A DNA stretch of 59,416 nucleotides, from positions 1-59,416 of IMG/VR virus record IMGVR_UViG_3300025402_000010; one strand, written 5' to 3'. The stretch is from a virus (Duplodnaviria > Caudoviricetes). The notes beneath the pieces were generated by a model that ran no database searches, had not been told where the DNA came from, and saw nothing but the letters and a program-made list of their open reading frames with translations. Shown piece by piece: positions 3,746 to 52,169 of this stretch. The position numbers and the translations under genes are program-made. The stretch's first letter is position 1, and each line of letters opens with the position of its first letter.

Positions 3746-4405
3746 TTAGTAACGCTTCTTTTGTAGCAACCAAGCTGATTCGTCTGCTGGCTCAAAAACA
3801 AAGCTCAACTCAAAAAAGTTTGGTTTAATGCAGCTCTCGTAAACAAGACTTTCAATTCTCTTTCCAGCTTTGTATACGGTAACCGTACGTCCTTTAAGAC
3901 GAGGGATGTGGGTGCAGTATTCAGCTGGTTTGCTAGCGTACTTACCGCAAGCTGAGCACTGCGTACCTTCTACGTCAGCACCCATACTGACAGCGTTCAA
4001 GCTACCCTCCATAATGGCATTGGCAAGCTTTGGGAAATTCTGTGCGTCTACTTCCATAAGGCAGTAAACACTGGCGTCTGTAGCACCTGAGGCAAGCTTG
4101 CTCTCACGGTATACAGCATCCAAAATTACACCTCGAGCACGATCTGGATCAGAGTTGTTGTGCTCTACGTAGATTGGGCGACCTATAAAAGTCTTATAAC
4201 TTTTCTTAATTTGGTCTACAGGCCAACCATCGTAATTAGCGTTTACTCTGGAAGAGATGGCTCTAGAAACAGCATAAACAAAATTAGGTTCTGGTTTAAA
4301 ATTGAAGTCATCAAGGGTAACATTGTGTAACTCAATAGGCTGACCAATACCGGCCAGCGTCTCTCTACCCTGTAGAGCAATTGAGGGTGCACCAAATTTA
4401 ATCAT
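3746..4405 (-). CDS. Prohead (capsid maturation) serine protease
   Basis: Motifs NANYDGW, TFIGRPIYVEHN (His), VSMG (Ser), FFELSFVFEPAD, with a CxxC insertion; position between portal and MCP. Confidence 0.8.
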   Translation of the reverse strand: MIKFGAPSIALQGRETLAGIGQPIELHNVTLDDFNFKPEPNFVYAVSRAISSRVNANYDGWPVDQIKKSYKTFIGRPIYVEHNNSDPDRARGVILDAVYRESKLASGATDASVYCLMEVDAQNFPKLANAIMEGSLNAVSMGADVEGTQCSACGKYASKPAEYCTHIPRLKGRTVTVYKAGKRIESLVYESCIKPNFFELSFVFEPADESAWLLQKKRY

Positions 4406-5483: not shown

Positions 5484-7817
5484 TTATAAATCTTCTTTTG
5501 TAGGATCAATTTGTCTACGAGCTGGTTGATCCATGCCACCTTCACCACTGCTGTGTTCGTCAAGGTTGGTTGGTTCTTGAATCATTGGCTCTTCAAGCAT
5601 TGATGCAAGGTGTTTCTTAAATTCATCTTCATTGAATTTTTCGTATGAATTATCAACAATGATCTTCATACCAGAGGCAAGCTTCATGCGCTTACGCTTT
5701 CTCTGCTCAAATGGTACGGCAAACTTCATGCGGTCACCGTATTCAACGCGGCCACTAAAGTCATCAAAGTCGTCCTCATCCCAGCCAGAAACAGATGCTG
5801 TCTTCTTCTTAGGTCCATTCTTAGGACCTTTCTTAGAAGGCTTAGGTTGATCCTTACGCTGTTCGTAGGAGACTTCAGGGCGTTGACGTTGTTGCTGTGC
5901 AGCCATTTCGTTAACGCTTGGGTAAACCTGTGCACCAGCAGCGGCATCGCTATTGCCAGCAGTGTTTCCAGTCATGTTTGGAGCACTTGGAGGAGTAACG
6001 AGACCCGCCATAGCTCCTGGTGCAAGTTGTGCAGCGATGGCAGGATTTTCCATCATTGCTAGGTAGGCCTGGTATTCCTGTACATATTCTGGCGGGATAG
6101 GCAATTGAAGAACCATTAAACGATTGAACAATTCTTTCTTGAACTGTTGTTCAGCAACAACCGTCTTAATTTTTTCTTCTTTACGGGCATGGATCTCATC
6201 ATCAAAGTCAATTGGGATATTAACTGCAAGAGTACTGAGAGAAATTGGAAAGCCAGAAGCACTAAGCTGTTGCAAAAACCCACGCTCAACTGTTTCATCT
6301 CGCAAGTTCATTGAGCGGAAACGGACCTCAGGAATGGCCAGCTTGGGTCGTTCTTCAACATATTCAGCGCCAGTTTCTTCATCAACCATAAGAACAGTTT
6401 CCATAACAGGAACCATTTGGCCGCCCACTTTACGCATCTCATAGTGACCTTGTCTTTCTGCCACTGGTTCCATGCGAGAACGAATAAACTTCTCAATCTT
6501 GTGCTGGTAAGTACTGAGCATTTGTGTAATGAGCTCACGGTTCAAAGCACCTGAAGCATACGTACCATTAGCACCACCTTGGATAAGGTCAGCACCGATA
6601 CCAAAAACACCCATGACGTTTGTCTGCACGCGCATGAAGTCTTGGTCAAGACGTGGCATTGACTCACGGCCAAACGCGTTCTGGATCTGCAAACCGTGGT
6701 GATACGTCATCAAACGGAAGTCTGAGTTGATAGCCATAGACAAGTCATCACGCAATGACTGGAGCTCCATAGCGTCAGGAACCCATGGACCGTCTTGGTC
6801 TACATCAGGAAGACCAAGAGTAGCCAGAATAAGAGGACTGTAGAGACGGTCAGCAATAGCATCCTGGGCTGCATTGAGTGACTCTTCCAACATAAGCATA
6901 CGGAAAGCACGTAGAAGAATAGGAGTACCATGTTCGCTCCAAGGGTTAGTCTTAAACTTGATTTGCTTCATGATGACATCGGAGACGGGGATCTCCTTGT
7001 CCTGTCGTGCCCACGCCACAACGTCTGGGTACATTTGCATAAGCATGGCATATTCTTGTGGAGGGTCACGACGTTCAATAAGTCGCTTGATCTCTTCAGG
7101 AACCTTTACGTGGAACTGGTATGTTCTTAGAGCGCGATTCTTAGCAACAATAACGTCGTTAGGGTTGATGATCTCGTCTTCTTCCCATGCACCAATACCA
7201 TCGTGCCAAGAACCCATGGCAAACACTTCACCAACAGTCCAGTGCTCACGGCCAAGGTCAAACAAGAATTCGTTGTAGTTAAGACCATCAAAGAACAACT
7301 CATTATAAAAATCCGAGATACGCTTGTCTGGGTGAACCAGCTCTACGTCAAGGAGAGGGAAACGAGTGTAGATGTCAATAAGAGAAGGCACAAGGTGGTG
7401 AGTAGTATAAAGAAGACGAGCCCAGTCACGAATTTTGCGTGTTTGCTCATCTGGGTCCTCCATGTTGAACCACCAGGTGCGCTCACGCCAGTATTCAAAT
7501 GGGTCGTGGAGCTTAGGCCAAGCCCATTGAGCATCTGAACCAGTAGCTGCACCGGTTTTACGGTTGGCAGTACGTGCCATACCATTCTCAGCTATAAAGT
7601 CTTTACCAAGACCATTTAGACGCTGTCTGCCCTCTGGTGGTCCACCCATTGCCATAGCCATAGGACCAATTTCATTAAGCATCGATCCACTAGTCTTAGC
7701 TCTATTGAGCATGTCACGTGCAGCGACACGTCCAGCAATAGGGTTCTTAGGGAGAGTAATACCGGCTGTTCTCATGCGGTTAAACTCCGCAGAAGCACTC
7801 CAGTCGTTTGTAGCCAT
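5484..7817 (-). CDS. Portal protein
   Basis: 777 aa upstream of protease and MCP; motifs LIDIYTRFPL, GREHWTVGEVF, WSEHGTPILLRAFR, AQDAIADRLYSPLILATLG as in Bxz1-like portals. Confidence 0.8.
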   Translation of the reverse strand: MATNDWSASAEFNRMRTAGITLPKNPIAGRVAARDMLNRAKTSGSMLNEIGPMAMAMGGPPEGRQRLNGLGKDFIAENGMARTANRKTGAATGSDAQWAWPKLHDPFEYWRERTWWFNMEDPDEQTRKIRDWARLLYTTHHLVPSLIDIYTRFPLLDVELVHPDKRISDFYNELFFDGLNYNEFLFDLGREHWTVGEVFAMGSWHDGIGAWEEDEIINPNDVIVAKNRALRTYQFHVKVPEEIKRLIERRDPPQEYAMLMQMYPDVVAWARQDKEIPVSDVIMKQIKFKTNPWSEHGTPILLRAFRMLMLEESLNAAQDAIADRLYSPLILATLGLPDVDQDGPWVPDAMELQSLRDDLSMAINSDFRLMTYHHGLQIQNAFGRESMPRLDQDFMRVQTNVMGVFGIGADLIQGGANGTYASGALNRELITQMLSTYQHKIEKFIRSRMEPVAERQGHYEMRKVGGQMVPVMETVLMVDEETGAEYVEERPKLAIPEVRFRSMNLRDETVERGFLQQLSASGFPISLSTLAVNIPIDFDDEIHARKEEKIKTVVAEQQFKKELFNRLMVLQLPIPPEYVQEYQAYLAMMENPAIAAQLAPGAMAGLVTPPSAPNMTGNTAGNSDAAAGAQVYPSVNEMAAQQQRQRPEVSYEQRKDQPKPSKKGPKNGPKKKTASVSGWDEDDFDDFSGRVEYGDRMKFAVPFEQRKRKRMKLASGMKIIVDNSYEKFNEDEFKKHLASMLEEPMIQEPTNLDEHSSGEGGMDQPARRQIDPTKEDL

Positions 7818-7828
7818 TGGTTATCTTT

Positions 7829-8014
7829 CTAGAATGCCATGCAGCTGCAGGATTCAACGCCTGGGATTGCTTGGTGGCCGCAAGGGTAATTTGCACTTCT
7901 TGTAGCTCTAATAATACCACCAGATGTATTTTGTGCAATAGGATTGCCATTAAAATCAAAATTAGCGCCAACACGTCTAATAGCTGCTTGTCTAATGTTT
8001 TGTTGTCTTTCCAT
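7829..8014 (-). CDS. Small Cys-containing hypothetical protein
   Basis: AAGGAG RBS; co-oriented in the operon. Confidence 0.6.
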   Translation of the reverse strand: MERQQNIRQAAIRRVGANFDFNGNPIAQNTSGGIIRATRSANYPCGHQAIPGVESCSCMAF

Positions 8015-42982: not shown

Positions 42983-43053
42983 ACTGCAGTAGCTCAATGG
43001 TAGAGCAACCTGGTTAACCAGGTAGGTTGTGGGTTCGATTCCCACCTGCAGTA
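42983..43053 (+). ncRNA. tRNA-like RNA with non-canonical palindromic anticodon arm
   Basis: ACTGCAG/CTGCAGT acceptor, GCTC-AATGGTA-GAGC D arm, GTGGG-TTCGATT-CCCAC T arm; anticodon arm is ACCTGGTTAACCAGGT with no 7-nt loop. Confidence 0.8.
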
Positions 43054-43123
43054 CGGTTCACATACCAACCCAGGTATGTGCCCGGTGTTCCCAAGCACCG
43101 TTAAACACAGGGAGAAACATATT

Positions 43124-43882
43124 ATGACCACTGAATTCATCGAGGGAATCCCGGTTCCCCAGTGCTTCATTGACCTTAACGATGTACTTGCTGCAGGTTG
43201 CAAGCGTGTCATCCTCTACGGTCCCCCCGGCACTGGTAAGACGTATTCAGCTCAGACCCTGCATGTCAATGCAGCTGGGTTCGAGACTCTCCTTTGCTCC
43301 GAGGACATGAGCAATGCTGACATTGTCGGCGCCATGCTTCCTAACGAGCGTGGTGGTTTCTCGTACGTCAAGGGCATCGGTCCAATCACCTGGGATGGTG
43401 ACGGTACTGTTGGTGGTCGTCTCGTTGTTGACGAGATCAACCGTGCCAGCGGTGACGTTGTCACCACGTTGATGAAGTTCCTCGACAGTCCGGAGTCGGC
43501 GGTCTGGAAGAATCCTTACACTGGTGAAGTTCACTTCCCACGTGAGGGCTTCTCTGCCATCATGACCACCAACTTTGAGGATCCCAACGAGATCGAGGGT
43601 CCGCTGCGTGACCGCTTCCCGGTTGCAATCAAGATTGACGCTGCTCACCCAGCTGCGTTGGTCTCTGCATTGCCACCAGAGTTGCGCATGTTGGCTGCGA
43701 CTATCGTTGCTGGTCGTCCCGGTGAGCGTGCTTCGCTACGTGCCTGGAAGGAATTCCAGACGCTGCGCAACAGCCCTCTGTTCACCACTGAGCGTGCTGC
43801 CAAGCTGGTATTCGGTAAGATGGCTGACCCCATCATCGATGCCATCCGCATCGGCACCCTTAACACGGAAGTGTCACTGTAA
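43124..43882 (+). CDS. MoxR/CbbQ-family AAA+ ATPase
   Basis: Walker A GPPGTGKT, Walker B LVVDEINR, sensor MTTN, arginine finger LRDRF; GGGAG RBS before ATG 43124. Confidence 0.88.
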   Translation: MTTEFIEGIPVPQCFIDLNDVLAAGCKRVILYGPPGTGKTYSAQTLHVNAAGFETLLCSEDMSNADIVGAMLPNERGGFSYVKGIGPITWDGDGTVGGRLVVDEINRASGDVVTTLMKFLDSPESAVWKNPYTGEVHFPREGFSAIMTTNFEDPNEIEGPLRDRFPVAIKIDAAHPAALVSALPPELRMLAATIVAGRPGERASLRAWKEFQTLRNSPLFTTERAAKLVFGKMADPIIDAIRIGTLNTEVSL

Positions 43883-45345
43883 TGGTTGACGAGCAGAAGC
43901 CCCTTGTAGGGGCAATCACTGCGTTCCGTGACGACGTAGCTGAGCCGATTGACTGGACTATTCAGCCCACTGTGGGTCAGAATGGTGTCGGTGTCGACTG
44001 GGCTGCAAAGGTACTGGCCGTCCCCCTTCGGGGGGACGACTGGTCCCGTCGTACGCAGCTCCGTGAGCTTATCCGTGCTCGTATATCACCTACGACTGGT
44101 GATGTAGCCAGGGTATTGGCCGATGGTTACAAGAACCAAGGGGTCAACAATGCTCTTCTCAATCTTGCAGAGGAGGCTCGTATCAACGCTGTTACTGAGC
44201 CTTTTGCCAAGATTAAGGGTCTTGAGCTTGACTCTACCGGTGCGGAGAAGAAGTCAGGTATCCGTATGGCAACGTCCGGTAGCCCTAACGACTGGGAAGA
44301 TGCAGTCGACTTCACTGTTCGCAACTACGCCAACAAGTCAGCATTCGACTCGTTTGCTGCTGGCGTACGTTCTGTGAACCCAGAGTGGAGTGACAGGCTA
44401 CGTAGGCTTGCTGGTCGCCTTGATAGTATCTTTGAGGGTACGCCGGATGACATTGGTTCTACCATGCCGTATTACTACAGTAGTGACGTGGTTGGTCCAA
44501 GGGGTTACAACAATACTCTTGTTGCAGCCTCTGAGATTGCCATCTATGCCAATGGCAAGCGCGCTCCTAGTGATGTTAAGCAACAGCGCCAGGATGATGA
44601 CGACAAGGCTCTTGAGGAGTATGGTGAGACGGAGCAGGAAACCAACCGTCTTAATCCTGACCAGACAATGCTCGAGGACGAGTTGCCTAACGACTTTGAG
44701 TTCCCTCACGACGAGAACGGAGATTTTGCGGAGCTTGTCATTGACGACACGCTTCCACTATCTGTCCAAGTCGAGGGGTTCATGAAGCGTAAGCGTAAGC
44801 CTGTTCTTGTCGGTCGTAAGATCGGTAACATTACCAGGTTCTACACTGACCCCGAGCGTCGTATCTTTACCCAGAAGATGCGTGTCAAGGGTGGCATGGT
44901 CATCATCGACATCTCAGGTTCTATGTCTCTGTCGCAGCAGGACATTGAATCAATTGTCGAGGCAGCACCTGCTGCTACCATCCTTGCATACAGTCAGACT
45001 CACTACCTTGACGCTAACGCGTGGCTCCTTGCCAAGCGTGGCTGGCGTGTACGTGAGATTCCATCTATCGGTGGTGCTGGTAACGGTGTTGACGGTCCTG
45101 CTCTGGTATGGGGCATCAAGAATCGTCACCCTAACGAGCCAATCATCTGGGTAACAGATGGTGAAGTCACTGCTGACGGTGGTGGTCAGAACGACCGCAT
45201 CATTATTCAGTGTGCTCAGTTGGTCAAGAAGCACAAGATCATCATGATTCCTTCTGTTGCAGAAGCAGTCAAGATGTTCAAGTCCGGTAAGCTTATCAAC
45301 AAGCCTGCCGGTCCGATTCGCAAAGCGCTTCTTGGTCGTCTGTAG
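43882..45345 (+). CDS. VWA-domain protein (MoxR partner, CobT-like)
   Basis: MIDAS motif IIDISGSMS...GGAGN...WVTDG; TAATG-coupled to the ATPase. Confidence 0.8.
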   Translation: MVDEQKPLVGAITAFRDDVAEPIDWTIQPTVGQNGVGVDWAAKVLAVPLRGDDWSRRTQLRELIRARISPTTGDVARVLADGYKNQGVNNALLNLAEEARINAVTEPFAKIKGLELDSTGAEKKSGIRMATSGSPNDWEDAVDFTVRNYANKSAFDSFAAGVRSVNPEWSDRLRRLAGRLDSIFEGTPDDIGSTMPYYYSSDVVGPRGYNNTLVAASEIAIYANGKRAPSDVKQQRQDDDDKALEEYGETEQETNRLNPDQTMLEDELPNDFEFPHDENGDFAELVIDDTLPLSVQVEGFMKRKRKPVLVGRKIGNITRFYTDPERRIFTQKMRVKGGMVIIDISGSMSLSQQDIESIVEAAPAATILAYSQTHYLDANAWLLAKRGWRVREIPSIGGAGNGVDGPALVWGIKNRHPNEPIIWVTDGEVTADGGGQNDRIIIQCAQLVKKHKIIMIPSVAEAVKMFKSGKLINKPAGPIRKALLGRL

Positions 45346-45461
45346 TACAAAGTCTTTGAGTAACTAGATACTCAAGTCACTGGGTGTAGTCACACACGTA
45401 TGAGGTGTGACTACACCCGGATGCACCAAGTAGGTGCAACATTAAACATTGGGAGATAATC

Positions 45462-45839
45462 ATGGAAGATTTCAACTTCGGTGACCTTACCCTCGACGAA
45501 GCAACAGTTTCACGTGTTGCTCATGCAGAGTTTCTTAACTCTATTAAAGAATGGGGTTCCAAGATGGGCATGGTATTACAGCCCTTCATTGGTGTAGCCA
45601 ACATTCTTATGGAGGATGAGATTCCAGAAGATCAGTTGGACAAAATTTCTGTTGCGTTCCCACTTGGTTTGCGCCTTGCGCTTAACCACATGAACTCTCT
45701 GTATGACATCATGCAGAAGGAAGCAATCAAGGTACTCGGTGCACCTTTTGCTATCCACGGTGAGCACCACCCAGAGTGCGATGGCACCAAGGATGGCTGT
45801 GGTCACCAGGACCACTGGCTAGAGAAGGAAGGAGAGTAG
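45462..45839 (+). CDS. Hypothetical protein
   Basis: GGGAG RBS; His/Cys C-terminus. Confidence 0.65.
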   Translation: MEDFNFGDLTLDEATVSRVAHAEFLNSIKEWGSKMGMVLQPFIGVANILMEDEIPEDQLDKISVAFPLGLRLALNHMNSLYDIMQKEAIKVLGAPFAIHGEHHPECDGTKDGCGHQDHWLEKEGE

Positions 45840-45840
45840 T

Positions 45841-46008
45841 ATGAACGAAGCAGAAGCTTACAAAGAGTTAAGCCTTAATCTACTGTACGTAATTGAGGAG
45901 ATTGTTGACGCGCTCAAACCTATTGGTCTTGACTTGTCTTCATTGCCTCACTACGAAGAGATGATTAACAATGCCCGCGCAGTATTGGGTGATAGCTCTA
46001 ACGACTAA
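45841..46008 (+). CDS. Small hypothetical protein (55 aa)
   Basis: Manual translation MNEAEAYKELSLNLLYVIEEIVDAL...; AAGGAG RBS. Confidence 0.6.
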   Translation: MNEAEAYKELSLNLLYVIEEIVDALKPIGLDLSSLPHYEEMINNARAVLGDSSND

Positions 46009-46700
46009 CTCCACGCGTTTCTCACAAGTGTAGTTAGTAACAACGCGCAGTGTATGGTGATGCCCGTCAATTATCATGTAGATAATAGCACCAGCCTCTT
46101 ACCATTGCATTGCACAACGCAGCATAAGGTATGAAGCTTATGTAGTGGTGGTCCAGTAACACTTAAAACTGGGATGCGCGGTCGTGCTATGGACCCAAAA
46201 AGCATAGCGGTGTCATCCACCCCTTAACGGATGAGCCTATACATTATTCATTTGATGTATAGGCGCTGTCCAATGGTGGCGCTGGACGAAGCACCCACCC
46301 GCTAGCAACGTACTGCTAAACTCAGCACATGGGGGAAGCCGGTGCAGGAAAGTGGTGGATGCCTATTTAAAGAACACACGCAGAGGAGCGACAGAATCCA
46401 TACTTATCGGTTGGAAGGAAGAGTAACCGTTGTGCAAGGGAGCGCGTGTACGGTGAAGACGCTCACACCACCTGGACATGTGGTTAAACTGTCCCTTTTC
46501 TTGTTAGCAATGATGTACCGGCTTATGAGCCCATGAGATCATTATTTAACGGACTCACCATAAGGGGAAGTTTATGGAGGTAACCTGAAGCCTACTGAAT
46601 AGATGGGGTAACCAGCACTCAGTCTGGACTGCTACACCGAGGGCGCGGTGTGTAGGGTATGGGTTCCACCCGAACTTCCAACGGGCCCACACAACCCACT
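46009..46700 (+). ncRNA. Candidate large structured non-coding RNA
   Basis: ~700 nt with no credible ORF; long-range helix 46110-46119/46428-46437, many hairpins and at least three pseudoknots. Confidence 0.6.
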
Positions 46701-46717
46701 AGTAAGAAAGAAGCATC

Positions 46718-46960
46718 ATGCAAATTGAATGTAATCAGCAAGGGCCTAACTTGCAAATCAACATCACGTTTGATGAACCTGAACAGTCACGTATTTTTCA
46801 TGAAAAGTTTAATAAAATGCTTGAAGATTTGGCTAATGAAATGAATGGCATGATGCTGACTGTTGATGGTGACAACCAAGAAATTAATAAAGAAGTAGCC
46901 AAGAAAGCTATGGAAGAAGCAATTAATATGTTTGTACCTAAGGAGAATAATGGTAGATAG
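46718..46960 (+). CDS. Hypothetical protein
   Basis: 80-aa ORF starting the next operon. Confidence 0.6.
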   Translation: MQIECNQQGPNLQINITFDEPEQSRIFHEKFNKMLEDLANEMNGMMLTVDGDNQEINKEVAKKAMEEAINMFVPKENNGR

Positions 46961-47360
46961 ACAATTACAATGGAGACGTTCTTATGCGTATGATGATTTA
47001 ATTTGGACAGCAAAAACTAAACCAGATAATCGTTGGTATGCGCACAGAGTAGATTTATCTTTTACTTTGAAAGCTGGTTTTCACGGTGGCATTGTTAATA
47101 AAAATGCTGTTCTTATAGTTAAAAAATGTGCTGAGGGTAAAAAAGTAGCTAACATTGTTGTTATGAAAAAAGAATTTATAAACAGTTATATTGCAAAATC
47201 TTTTTTAGATTCTTTGTTGTATGCTTCAACTATTATGTTTGATACAGTTGAAAAAGGAGAAGAATGGTTCCTTAAACAATTGAATGATTATAAAGATGCT
47301 CCACCACCAGAACAAAGAACTTCTTTGCCAAGTTCAATTAGTGCTGGTTACCCAATCTGA
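46950..47360 (+). CDS. Hypothetical protein, paralog of 48177-48791
   Basis: AAGGAG RBS before ATG 46950; FDTVEKGEEWFL. Confidence 0.65.
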   Translation: MVDRQLQWRRSYAYDDLIWTAKTKPDNRWYAHRVDLSFTLKAGFHGGIVNKNAVLIVKKCAEGKKVANIVVMKKEFINSYIAKSFLDSLLYASTIMFDTVEKGEEWFLKQLNDYKDAPPPEQRTSLPSSISAGYPI

Positions 47361-47406
47361 TAATTGACCGTTTATCAGGTAAAACAACAAGGTCAGAAAG
47401 AATATC

Positions 47407-47796
47407 ATGGATAATGAAATCCAATTGTCAGATGAAGTAAAGCTTGCAATTATCAAGAAAGAACTATTAAACCTAGTTGATATTGTAAAAGTATTATTCA
47501 CTGTTAACACAACTCTTGAAGTTCACAGACAAGAGTTAACAGGTGAAATTCCTGAACAATTTAAGGAATTAATTGAATCAGATATATACAAAAAATCTAT
47601 TCCTCTTGCTATCAATGCAAGTAATGAATTGCTTAATAATCTTGTTGTGTTTACTAATAATTTAGCAGGTGTATTTGATATTGATTTTATATCACAGTTA
47701 CCTACTAATGAACAAGAATTTCTTAATATGAATAAAACAATGCATAAAGATTTAGAAAATAAAGTAATGCGTGAGTATGGTTGGGAGACCGAATGA
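47407..47796 (+). CDS. Hypothetical helical protein
   Basis: 129-aa ORF, AT-rich. Confidence 0.6.
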   Translation: MDNEIQLSDEVKLAIIKKELLNLVDIVKVLFTVNTTLEVHRQELTGEIPEQFKELIESDIYKKSIPLAINASNELLNNLVVFTNNLAGVFDIDFISQLPTNEQEFLNMNKTMHKDLENKVMREYGWETE

Positions 47797-47978
47797 TTGA
47801 TTTAACTAGTAAGATTATTGCTTACGAGCAAGATGAGCTCAGCTATGAGGAGACAGTTGAACTGTTCCAAGAGCTTATTGATAACGGTATGGCCTGGCGT
47901 TTGCAAGGTCATTACGGTCGTATGGCAATAGCACTCATTGAGAGTGGTGACTGCACCCCAAGTAAGGAGAATGTATGA
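47793..47978 (+). CDS. Conserved small phage protein
   Basis: IIAYE...LFQELIDNGMAWRLQGHYGR motif, widespread in phages. Confidence 0.7.
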   Translation: MIDLTSKIIAYEQDELSYEETVELFQELIDNGMAWRLQGHYGRMAIALIESGDCTPSKENV

Positions 47979-51112: not shown

Positions 51113-52159
51113 TTATGGTTTGCTACCACCAACAAACTTGGTAGAAGCATATCTAGTGATTGAGAAGTTACTAGATCGTTGTGACCAACTCAATGAAGTA
51201 ATTGATATTATGGAGGAAGAACTATGAAAGTATATGAAGTAACATGCGGGTTAACCGTAGTGTTGGAAGCAGAGACTCAGGAAGATGCTGAGAAAGCAGC
51301 TCGCCAGTTAGTTGATGGTGAGTTGGGTAGCCAGGTAGGCAAGATGATGTGGTACCAAGTAAAGGATAATAATGAATCTAAGTGAGAAACAATTGCGTTG
51401 TCTTCTAGAAATTATAGAAGCTGACATGGAATATGCTGAGATGACTGCGGACATGGAGTTTCGTGGTTTTCTTGGTGAGCTACACACAGAATTACAATCA
51501 GAGTTGTACAACAAAATGAAAGTGAAGTAATCATAATGGATAATCCAAATGAACCAAAGAACTGTCCACGCTGTAAGCAAATCTATGTAGGGTTCCCCGC
51601 CCTATCTAGGTTGGATAACAAGTCACGCATCTGCTCGCCCTGTGGTATGGACGAAGCATTGCAGGACTTTACATGTGTACCACTAACCAATTTCCTTGAG
51701 GAGGAAGAATGAGAAAGTATGAAGTCACGTTAGTCATGGAGCTAGAATACAATCCTGATAAATGGGATTGGGGTTCTCTCTTAGATTTAAACGTCACTGA
51801 GACACTTGAGTCAGTCAAAGTAGAGGAGTTATAATGAATTCAGAAACATCAATCATCTCAGGTGCAAAGTCATTAGTCCTGTGGGCTATTGATGATGCAA
51901 AAAGGAATGGTAGTTTGGAACACGCTATCCATAACCTTAAGCGCATCTACGCATTCCTGGCAGACGAAGAGTTTGTAACAGAAAAACAAGGAAAGGAGGC
52001 ATAATGGATGAAGTAACTAAAGATAACCTAGAAGAATGGTTTGAAGAGATTGATTTTACTGATTTAGATCAAGATGATCTTGATGAGTTGAACAATGAGT
52101 TGGACAAAGCTCGGGCATCAGTCTTTGAAACATTCCTCAATGAGTTCCCAATCAAGTAA
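51099..52159 (+). other. Run of about seven tightly coupled small ORFs (40-60 aa)
   Basis: Manual reading finds starts at 51099, 51224, 51372, 51536, 51709, 51834 and 52004, mostly with GGAG/GAGG RBS and overlapping stop/start codons. Confidence 0.6.
51536..51712 (+). CDS. Small zinc-finger protein
   Basis: CPRC...PALSRLDNKSRICSPCG...EAL, a common phage motif. Confidence 0.7.
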   Translation: MDNPNEPKNCPRCKQIYVGFPALSRLDNKSRICSPCGMDEALQDFTCVPLTNFLEEEE

Positions 52160-52169
52160 GGAGTAAGTT

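Follow-up and report, generated by a model that had tools for sequence, protein, structure and literature searches.

GOLLD and ROOL are large ornate RNAs of phages and prophages; GOLLD was first seen in lake metagenomes. The 3' untranslated regions of flaviviruses contain tandemly duplicated nuclease-resistant and dumbbell modules, which are pseudoknotted, comprise approximately 70-200 nt and differ in copy number among related viruses. In sponges of the CsrB/RsmZ type, a repeated hairpin with a conserved purine-rich loop binds several copies of one protein. Large structured RNAs of unassigned function are rare, and every class so far has opened new RNA biology.

The locus described here is located in a viral DNA of 59,416 nt, the whole of which is referred to as the window. 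Judging from comparisons with related phages, the plus strand of 46009-46717 very probably encodes a conserved structured RNA of approximately 700 nt that lies outside Rfam and is confined to one clade of uncultured freshwater phages. With GOLLD (RF01998) and ROOL (RF03087) this array shares a length of hundreds of nucleotides, pseudoknots, multi-stem junctions and its residence in phages. By contrast, it does not possess one fixed fold but paralogous modules varying in number and order, and it is embedded between protein genes. The modules of flaviviruses are analogous inasmuch as they are pseudoknotted, arranged in tandem within a viral non-coding region and variable in copy number. However, those viruses are eukaryotic RNA viruses whose modules resemble the array neither in sequence nor by model, and the conserved hairpin (head) that opens each module of the array has no counterpart there. 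Unlike the CsrB/RsmZ sponges, the arrays have only two to six scored heads; neighbouring heads are separated by 142-309 nt, a space occupied by large conserved domains with pseudoknots. Distinctive features are the changing number and order of paralogous pseudoknotted domains, the marking of every domain by an invariant hairpin of fixed geometry and the single fixed genomic place across a clade of uncultured phages.

A catalogue of csRNAs published in 2023 (PMC10690425), for which the intergenic regions of IMG/VR 3.0 were mined by covariation, contains 8495 unnamed DNAVirus_N candidates with lengths of 29-151 nt. The word "tandem" does not occur in its main text. Single hairpins or sub-modules of the array may be among these candidates. 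Literature searches yielded no description of the array.

The source phage and its gene-poor region

The source record (IMG/VR, 59,416 bases) has an estimated completeness of 39%, and the 20 sequencing runs found to contain the stretch are all of freshwater DNA, with no RNA run among them. The phage encodes a large terminase and a portal protein (phrog_2833, 2.3e-164) that matched 227 phage records. The best matches, approximately 40% identical, belong to the Gordonia phages SCentae and Pupper and to Mycobacterium Bixzunavirus. Since every one of the 227 matches is below 60% identity, kinship with the large actinobacterial myoviruses would be a distant one.

The region had been noticed as the longest gene-free stretch of the early gene block, and its gene-free character was borne out. 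With a threshold of 70 aa, the largest ORF-free gap of the window is 45840-46717 (878 nt), compared to 589 nt for the runner-up, while at 50 aa the sole gap of at least 200 nt in the window is 46009-46341. The second-largest gap (51581-52169) contained neither an Rfam match at gathering score nor a match to the head model R1 described below. The longest plus-strand ORF of the region (64 aa, 46342-46536) is interrupted by in-frame stops in six of six homologous stretches, and in four of the six the length of the frame differs by a non-multiple of three. As far as can be judged from its sequence, 46009-46717 is ORF-poor and non-coding. The GC content amounts to about 0.45-0.55 up to 46700 and to 0.26-0.35 across the next three small genes (46700-47800), which suggests a mosaic junction.

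Architecture of the array

The region is composed of a short two-hairpin leader and, in tandem, three modules that are paralogous to one another and each 200-230 nt long (Table 1). The head of a module is followed by a hairpin of the AGG...CCU type, by one H-type pseudoknot or two, and by further hairpins that have kept their loop sequences while their stems covary. The stop codon of the upstream gene p55 falls within the first leader hairpin. From 46009 to 46039, the leader is 93.5% identical to that of the closest relative, L002, and a similar element was recognised by eye in L039. At the equivalent place of the second leader hairpin, GGGUU-AUCGUCAA-AACCC was seen in L002, L034 and L039 (by eye, no formal count). 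Many arrays (leaders of L003, L006, L039, L043 and L083) open with a hairpin having a long pyrimidine-tract loop (…GUGCUUUUCCUUCUUGUUGUUGCA…), and linkers resembling CCCUUUCUUGUG recur within modules, including 46485-46497 of the window. Homologues of the downstream gene d80 occupy the equivalent position in L002, L003, L039, L044, L049 and L028.

Table 1. Array features and adjacent genes with their positions in the window
Feature	Position	Strand	Basis or remark
AAA+ ATPase (MoxR/AAA_5-type)	43076-43882	+	Pfam AAA_5, 4.5e-15
vWA protein	43882-45345	+	vWA fold
p125	45462-45839	+	Upstream block, 43076..45839
p55, 55-aa gene upstream	45841..46008	+	ORF list; homologue in L002 75% identical
Leader hairpin ACUAACUCCAC / GUGUAGUUAGU	46004..46038	+	Inverted repeat
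Leader hairpin AUGGUGAU-GCCCGUCA-AUUAUCAU, CGUCAA-type loop	46054..46077	+	Read from sequence
10-bp long-range complement, 5' arm	46110..46119	+	Partner 46428-46437; exact, unconserved
Module 1	46114..46316	+	R1 18.9 bits, E 0.061; alignment A6
Module 1, variant head: ACGCA, 8-nt loop GUAUGAAG	Stem 46122-28/46137-43	+	R1 match
Module 1, AGUG/CACU	46144-47/46160-63	+	Alignment A6
Module 1, H-type pseudoknot	46180-46208	+	GGUC/GACC crossing GCUAUG/CAUAGC; alignment A6
Module 1, hairpin with CUUAAC loop	46213-34	+	Alignment A6
Module 1, 12-bp hairpin	46235-64	+	Alignment A6
Module 1, GUCCA/UGGAC	46268-87	+	Coordinates read from sequence
Module 1, UAGCA/UGCUA	46303-18	+	Coordinates read from sequence
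Module 2	46317..46549	+	R1 21 bits, E 0.018; alignment A5
Module 2, head: bulged stem, GGGAAG loop	46325-45	+	
Module 2, AGG/CCU	46346-67	+	
Module 2, CGC/GCG	46379-90	+	
Module 2, helix	46406-31	+	
Module 2, GAGCG/CGCUC	46440-64	+	
Module 2, GGACA/UGUCC	46474-94	+	Pyrimidine-rich linker follows
Module 2, two-tier hairpin	Outer stem 46511-14/46538-41	+	
Module 3 (terminal)	46550..46692	+	R1 45.6 bits, E 5.5e-9; ~90% identical to L002
Module 3, canonical head: ACUCA, loop GGGAAG, AGG	Stem 46558-64/46571-77	+	
Module 3, AGG/CCU	46578-93	+	
Module 3, CCAG/CUGG	46612-27	+	
Module 3, ACACCG/CGGUGU	46634-51	+	
Module 3, terminal GGGUAUG...GCCCAC element	46655-90	+	
d80, 80-aa gene downstream	46718..46960	+	Start ~25 nt past terminal element

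Several hairpins listed in the original prediction are indeed present, namely GCATAAG/CTTATGT (46122-28/46137-43), TCATCC/GGATGA (46213-18/46229-34), an exact 10-bp hairpin (46235-44/46255-64) and, as read from the sequence, GTCCA/TGGAC (46268-72/46283-87). The prediction had moreover assumed a single fold of about 700 nt, in which a perfect 10-bp helix (46110-19/46428-37) encloses some 310 nt. The complementarity of the two arms is exact, but the helix is not conserved: in eight homologous modules the best upstream complement comprised 0-8 nt at unrelated positions. Long-range complements in homologous modules corresponded to the shuffled expectation (means 2.9-5.9), and a shuffle of the window also reached 10 nt. 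The number and order of the modules vary among the relatives, which suggests beads on a string instead of a single globular architecture.

The head motif

The head consists of ACUCA, a stem of exactly 7 bp, a GGGAAG hexaloop and AGG. ACUCA together with the GGGAAG-loop hairpin, which the first relatives had in common, served as a search pattern and was encountered in 11 viral, 47 metagenome and 6 bacterial-genome stretches. Among the 47 metagenome matches, 39 were judged to be genuine, while eight without stem complementarity (L020, L022, L025, L026, L031, L040, L046, L051) were set aside as chance matches. The six bacterial-genome matches, showing neither stem complementarity nor a match to R1, look like chance as well. 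Strict GGGAAG hairpins lie on a single strand throughout and nearly all have exactly seven stacked pairs.

For the analysis of covariation, 57 distinct heads were collected from the relatives, whereby a GGGAAG loop and at least six stacked pairs were required. Since the heads were thus selected for pairing, their pairing percentage is given by construction, and the evidence lies solely in how varied the pair types are. All seven stem pairs revealed two-sided changes (104 of 392 cells); slid controls paired at 16-58%. The outermost pair is a wobble in 30 of 56 cases. As such wobbles would be A-C mismatches on the opposite strand, it is the plus-strand RNA that folds.

A covariance model of the head, R1, gave 72 matches at E <= 1 in 346 kb, all of them on the strand of the array. 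Only three matches were found in the window (at 46114, 46317 and 46550). Two of these are weak (E values in Table 1), and one head has an 8-nt loop instead of the hexaloop. Further degenerate heads were seen by eye in the relatives. In three whole phage records of 93-123 kb, the heads are confined to a single array. The most distant array (L089, 7522-8120; 38% vWA identity) has kept one canonical head and the terminal element and contains additional head-like hairpins with other loops, e.g. GGAAAG, so that the family may reach past the detection limit of R1.

Conservation and genomic context

Through the vWA protein encoded next to the array, six viral contigs were found, of which L002 is the closest (85% amino-acid identity). 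The order of the locus is AAA+ ATPase, vWA protein, p125, sometimes p55, array and small genes including one for a DUF7417 protein. This synteny holds in all 16 loci with a flank of sufficient length, and in every relative the array takes up all the space that separates the same genes. The order of the modules and even the combinations of sub-modules differ between the loci. The window shows the combination that we propose as the mark of the family: two or more R1-type heads that share a strand and are spaced at 140-430 nt, with the ATPase, vWA and p125 genes upstream of them.

A survey of vWA homologues (79 loci, 895 kb) yielded 44 R1 matches. Sixteen loci have a vWA identity of 38% or more, and 15 of these account for all 44 matches, whereas the sixteenth ends at the vWA gene. 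In the other 63 loci no R1 match was obtained. The gaps of the distant vWA loci L096, L098, L109 and L127 are unrelated to the array. In L098, a gap of 537 nt after the vWA gene (7393-7929) is filled with repeated GC-rich palindromes of the ATCGCGC...GCGCGAT type and has no R1 heads. No match was obtained when the region was compared with 50,697 phage records by blastn or when cultured relatives were sought with the vWA protein by tblastn, and R1 had no matches in two cultured distant relatives, genomes which had been matched by the portal protein.

Within the region, 46320-46716 is 83% identical to L002 (blastn), the alignment containing 1-nt and 3-nt indels, whereas 46040-46320 is far more diverged. 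In the relatives, the terminal GGGUAUG...GCCCAC element always lies shortly before the ribosome-binding site of the following gene, and it is unchanged even though the genes at this position come from two or more unrelated families.

Covariation of the modules

The folding energy of the region is unexceptional. On the plus strand an MFE z-score of -1.34 was calculated, with 2 of 20 shuffles folding equally well, and the minus strand scored better (z = -2.82). The case for structure therefore rests on the comparison with relatives.

For the class of module 1 (alignment A6, 16 modules), 35 pairs were determined, which were 99.8% paired, and two-sided changes occurred in 22 of them. The observed covariation score was reached by none of 500 shuffles, slid controls paired at 26-47% and wobbles made up 48 of 528 cells. 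The supported set includes the hairpin with the CUUAAC loop, the 12-bp hairpin and both stems of a pseudoknot (46180-46208) that had already been suggested on the basis of the window and for which compensatory changes were detected in the relatives. Of a second suggested pseudoknot (46144-73), the stem AGUG/CACU covaries in two of its four pairs, while the second stem, CCAG/CUGG, was by eye only conserved.

The class of module 2 (A5, seven modules) comprises 40 pairs (93.7% paired) with two-sided changes in 14. A possible pseudoknot, GUGGAU/AUCCAU (46355-60/46396-401), and a helix, GUG/CAC (46432-34/46469-71), were rejected, since the alignment of the seven modules did not support them, and a resemblance of this module to RNase P was dropped because it is not conserved. 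For module 3, RNAalifold proposed 34 pairs on six sequences, five of them with two-sided changes; in this set the head was supported and the rest more weakly. A pairing of ACUCA with a downstream UGAG, which had been hinted at by RNAalifold and by the ACGCA/UGCG variant of the window, turned out by eye to be inconsistent across modules.

Altogether, 43 helix pairs of the heads and the classes of modules 1 and 2 show compensatory changes, a count that does not represent independent events because paralogous modules were aligned together and the phage lineages that contributed them are few. The original prediction of a large structured non-coding RNA of a class outside Rfam is thereby backed.

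Comparison with known RNA classes

Searching the whole window against Rfam 15 at gathering scores detected five tRNAs and nothing else. At E <= 10, two meaningless matches on the minus strand were obtained for 45800-46900. Thirteen related loci (43,723 nt) yielded seven sub-threshold matches at E <= 1, of which none lies within a module array and none concerns GOLLD, ROOL, an intron or a riboswitch. Two weak matches to microRNA models were located in the leader regions of L063 and L047, and a weak partial match to a tmRNA model approximately 4.5 kb from the array of L063. As no Rfam family matched, the array is not a GOLLD, ROOL, tmRNA or intron RNA. Membership in GOLLD or ROOL, which had been contemplated initially, was not supported, since neither RF01998 nor RF03087 gave a covariance-model match in the window, in 45800-46900 at E <= 10 or in the 13 loci at E <= 1. 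In the original prediction, no tmRNA ends or intron cores had been recognised. ARAGORN found five tRNAs and no tmRNA, and matches to the tmRNA clan or to group I or group II introns of Rfam were absent from the region. An intron is also contradicted by the flanks: the small genes on the two sides are distinct from each other, have starts and homologues of their own, and on the downstream side belong to different families in different loci.

In CRISPR arrays, direct repeats that are almost identical (23-50 nt) are separated by spacers unrelated to each other. The array does not correspond to this pattern: the head stems vary within it, the intervening 150-250 nt are conserved and structured, and the direct-repeat families of the window are matches of 70-90% over 10-20 nt. 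In type III toxin-antitoxin systems, the antitoxin RNA (ToxI-like) consists of almost identical units of about 34-48 nt repeated in tandem, and the gene for an endoribonuclease toxin follows immediately downstream. The units of the array, by contrast, are non-identical and measure 142-309 nt, and the downstream proteins have no family match except DUF7417. No aptamer model of the riboswitch classes in Rfam matched in the window, the region or the 13 loci; the array may represent a ligand-binding class outside these riboswitches.

Neighbouring proteins as possible partners

The block of ATPase, vWA protein and p125 contains a match to phrog_33218. The AlphaFold model of the vWA protein (pLDDT 74.6) gave only weak vWA/integrin-I matches, and no domain other than vWA was recognised in this protein. 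In RNPs of the Ro60/Y-RNA type, a TROVE ring precedes the vWA domain N-terminally. Such a ring was not found in the neighbouring vWA protein, Ro60 is absent among the 44 structure matches listed for it, and it had no Pfam match at E <= 0.1 and no PDB sequence match to Ro. The protein p125 is predicted to fold into two long helices (a helical hairpin) with a His/Cys tail. The C-terminal motif H-x2-H-x3-C-x6-C-x-H-x2-H is invariant (13 homologues), and by its sequence the tail looks metal-binding. For p125, there was no Foldseek match to the PDB at E <= 0.001, no Atlas lead and no family match. Pfam, PHROGs and NCBIfam revealed nothing RNA-related for the neighbouring proteins, and no candidate partner was found among the neighbouring genes.

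Possible functions of the array

The array is probably transcribed within a rightward operon because there is no space beside it for a promoter or a terminator, and no promoter-like or terminator-like sites were detected on the plus strand of 45300-46900. Due to their fixed stem length, invariant loop and conserved single-stranded flanks, the heads can be read as repeated sites for one sequence- and shape-specific protein, which might bind them or cut them as an endoribonuclease and might come from the phage or from the host. The transcript would then be a multivalent platform. Either cleavage at the heads would release stable pseudoknotted RNAs of approximately 200 nt, or the transcript would hold several copies of the partner. 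Taken as one statement, a structured modular RNA that is transcribed within the operon and recognised at its heads is on balance the probable case. The mechanism alone, i.e. repeated recognition of the heads by one protein through binding or cleavage, is put forward tentatively and is favoured over a cis-acting leader. As a candidate for protein recognition or processing, the array is specific enough to be put to the test. Its natural variants may disclose which parts are needed, and the modules are compact structure targets of about 200 nt.

Nearly as likely, and hence a possibility to be taken seriously, is a cis-acting intercistronic leader. The array would stay in the mRNA, where its stacked pseudoknotted modules could protect or regulate the downstream genes, e.g. 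through a block to exo- or endonucleolytic decay or through translational control of the following gene. A leader of this kind would be comparable to the nuclease-resistant modules arranged in tandem in some viral untranslated regions. A varying number of modules would be expected of additive protective units, but the invariant head loop and the exact 7-bp stem suggest specific recognition over generic stability. The missing promoter-like and terminator-like signals fit a leader, and so does the extent of the array, which reaches from the p55 stop codon to a point some 25 nt short of the following start codon. The terminal element, although constantly located just upstream of the next ribosome-binding site, remains the same in front of at least two unrelated gene families, and by eye no pairing of the array with this binding site was seen.

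The array might also be a trans-acting viral RNA of a new class, a rather unlikely role in our estimation. Such an RNA would be a string of two to six or more pseudoknotted domains resembling aptamers, which the invariant GGGAAG hairpins would serve to release or display. In the course of infection it would be a multivalent decoy for a host RNA-binding protein or nuclease or even for small-molecule immune signals. The phages could tune the dose through gain, loss and reshuffling of modules. If a trans-acting function is true, the array adds an RNA-based tool to phage host takeover.

An ornate RNA that assembles without protein in the manner of ROOL or GOLLD is improbable. Loop-loop or loop-receptor contacts, intra- or intermolecular, between the conserved loops GGGAAG, CUUAAC, YUUCRUUG and GACCCAAAAA would give rise to a higher-order particle, and cage-forming large phage RNAs have been described (10.1101/2024.12.08.627333). 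Many loops are in fact conserved in sequence while their stems covary. The head loop of module 1 (GUAUGAAG) can pair over 5 nt with the loop of the long hairpin (UAUUCAUUUG; AUGAA/UUCAU), but this complementarity is missing in several modules (L063, L039). Both the varying number and order of modules among close relatives, unlike a fixed protomer, and the lack of Rfam matches to ROOL and GOLLD speak against self-assembly.

Still less plausible is an element acting at the DNA level, for instance an origin of replication, a site of packaging or recombination or a cassette of promoter hairpins. Such an element would agree with the single locus per genome and the sharp boundary in composition at 46700 (GC ~0.5 upstream, 0.26-0.35 downstream), and the shuffling of modules recalls recombination hot spots. 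It is contradicted by the covariation of the pseudoknots and by the frequency of strand-specific wobbles both in the module 1 class and in the outermost head pairs; iterons and an AT-rich unwinding region are not evident. Finally, a functionless, fast-evolving spacer with chance hairpins, to which the insignificant plus-strand z-score and the fortuitous long-range helix would correspond, can be dismissed, as the region is ~83-90% identical to L002 compared to 85% amino-acid identity of the vWA protein, as compensatory changes affect 43 helix pairs and as the position of the array is kept down to 38% vWA identity.

Outside the arrays, two further possible RNA elements attracted attention. A tRNA gene (42983-43054, plus strand; 60 bits in Rfam) lies directly upstream of the ATPase gene in the window; its anticodon loop is odd, and ARAGORN calls it tRNA-???, the "anticodon" at position 33 having only two bases (ta). 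In L062, approximately 2.6 kb downstream of the array, the type II hammerhead ribozyme was matched below threshold at positions 4019-4076 on the plus strand (32 bits compared to a gathering score of 37, E 0.0095).
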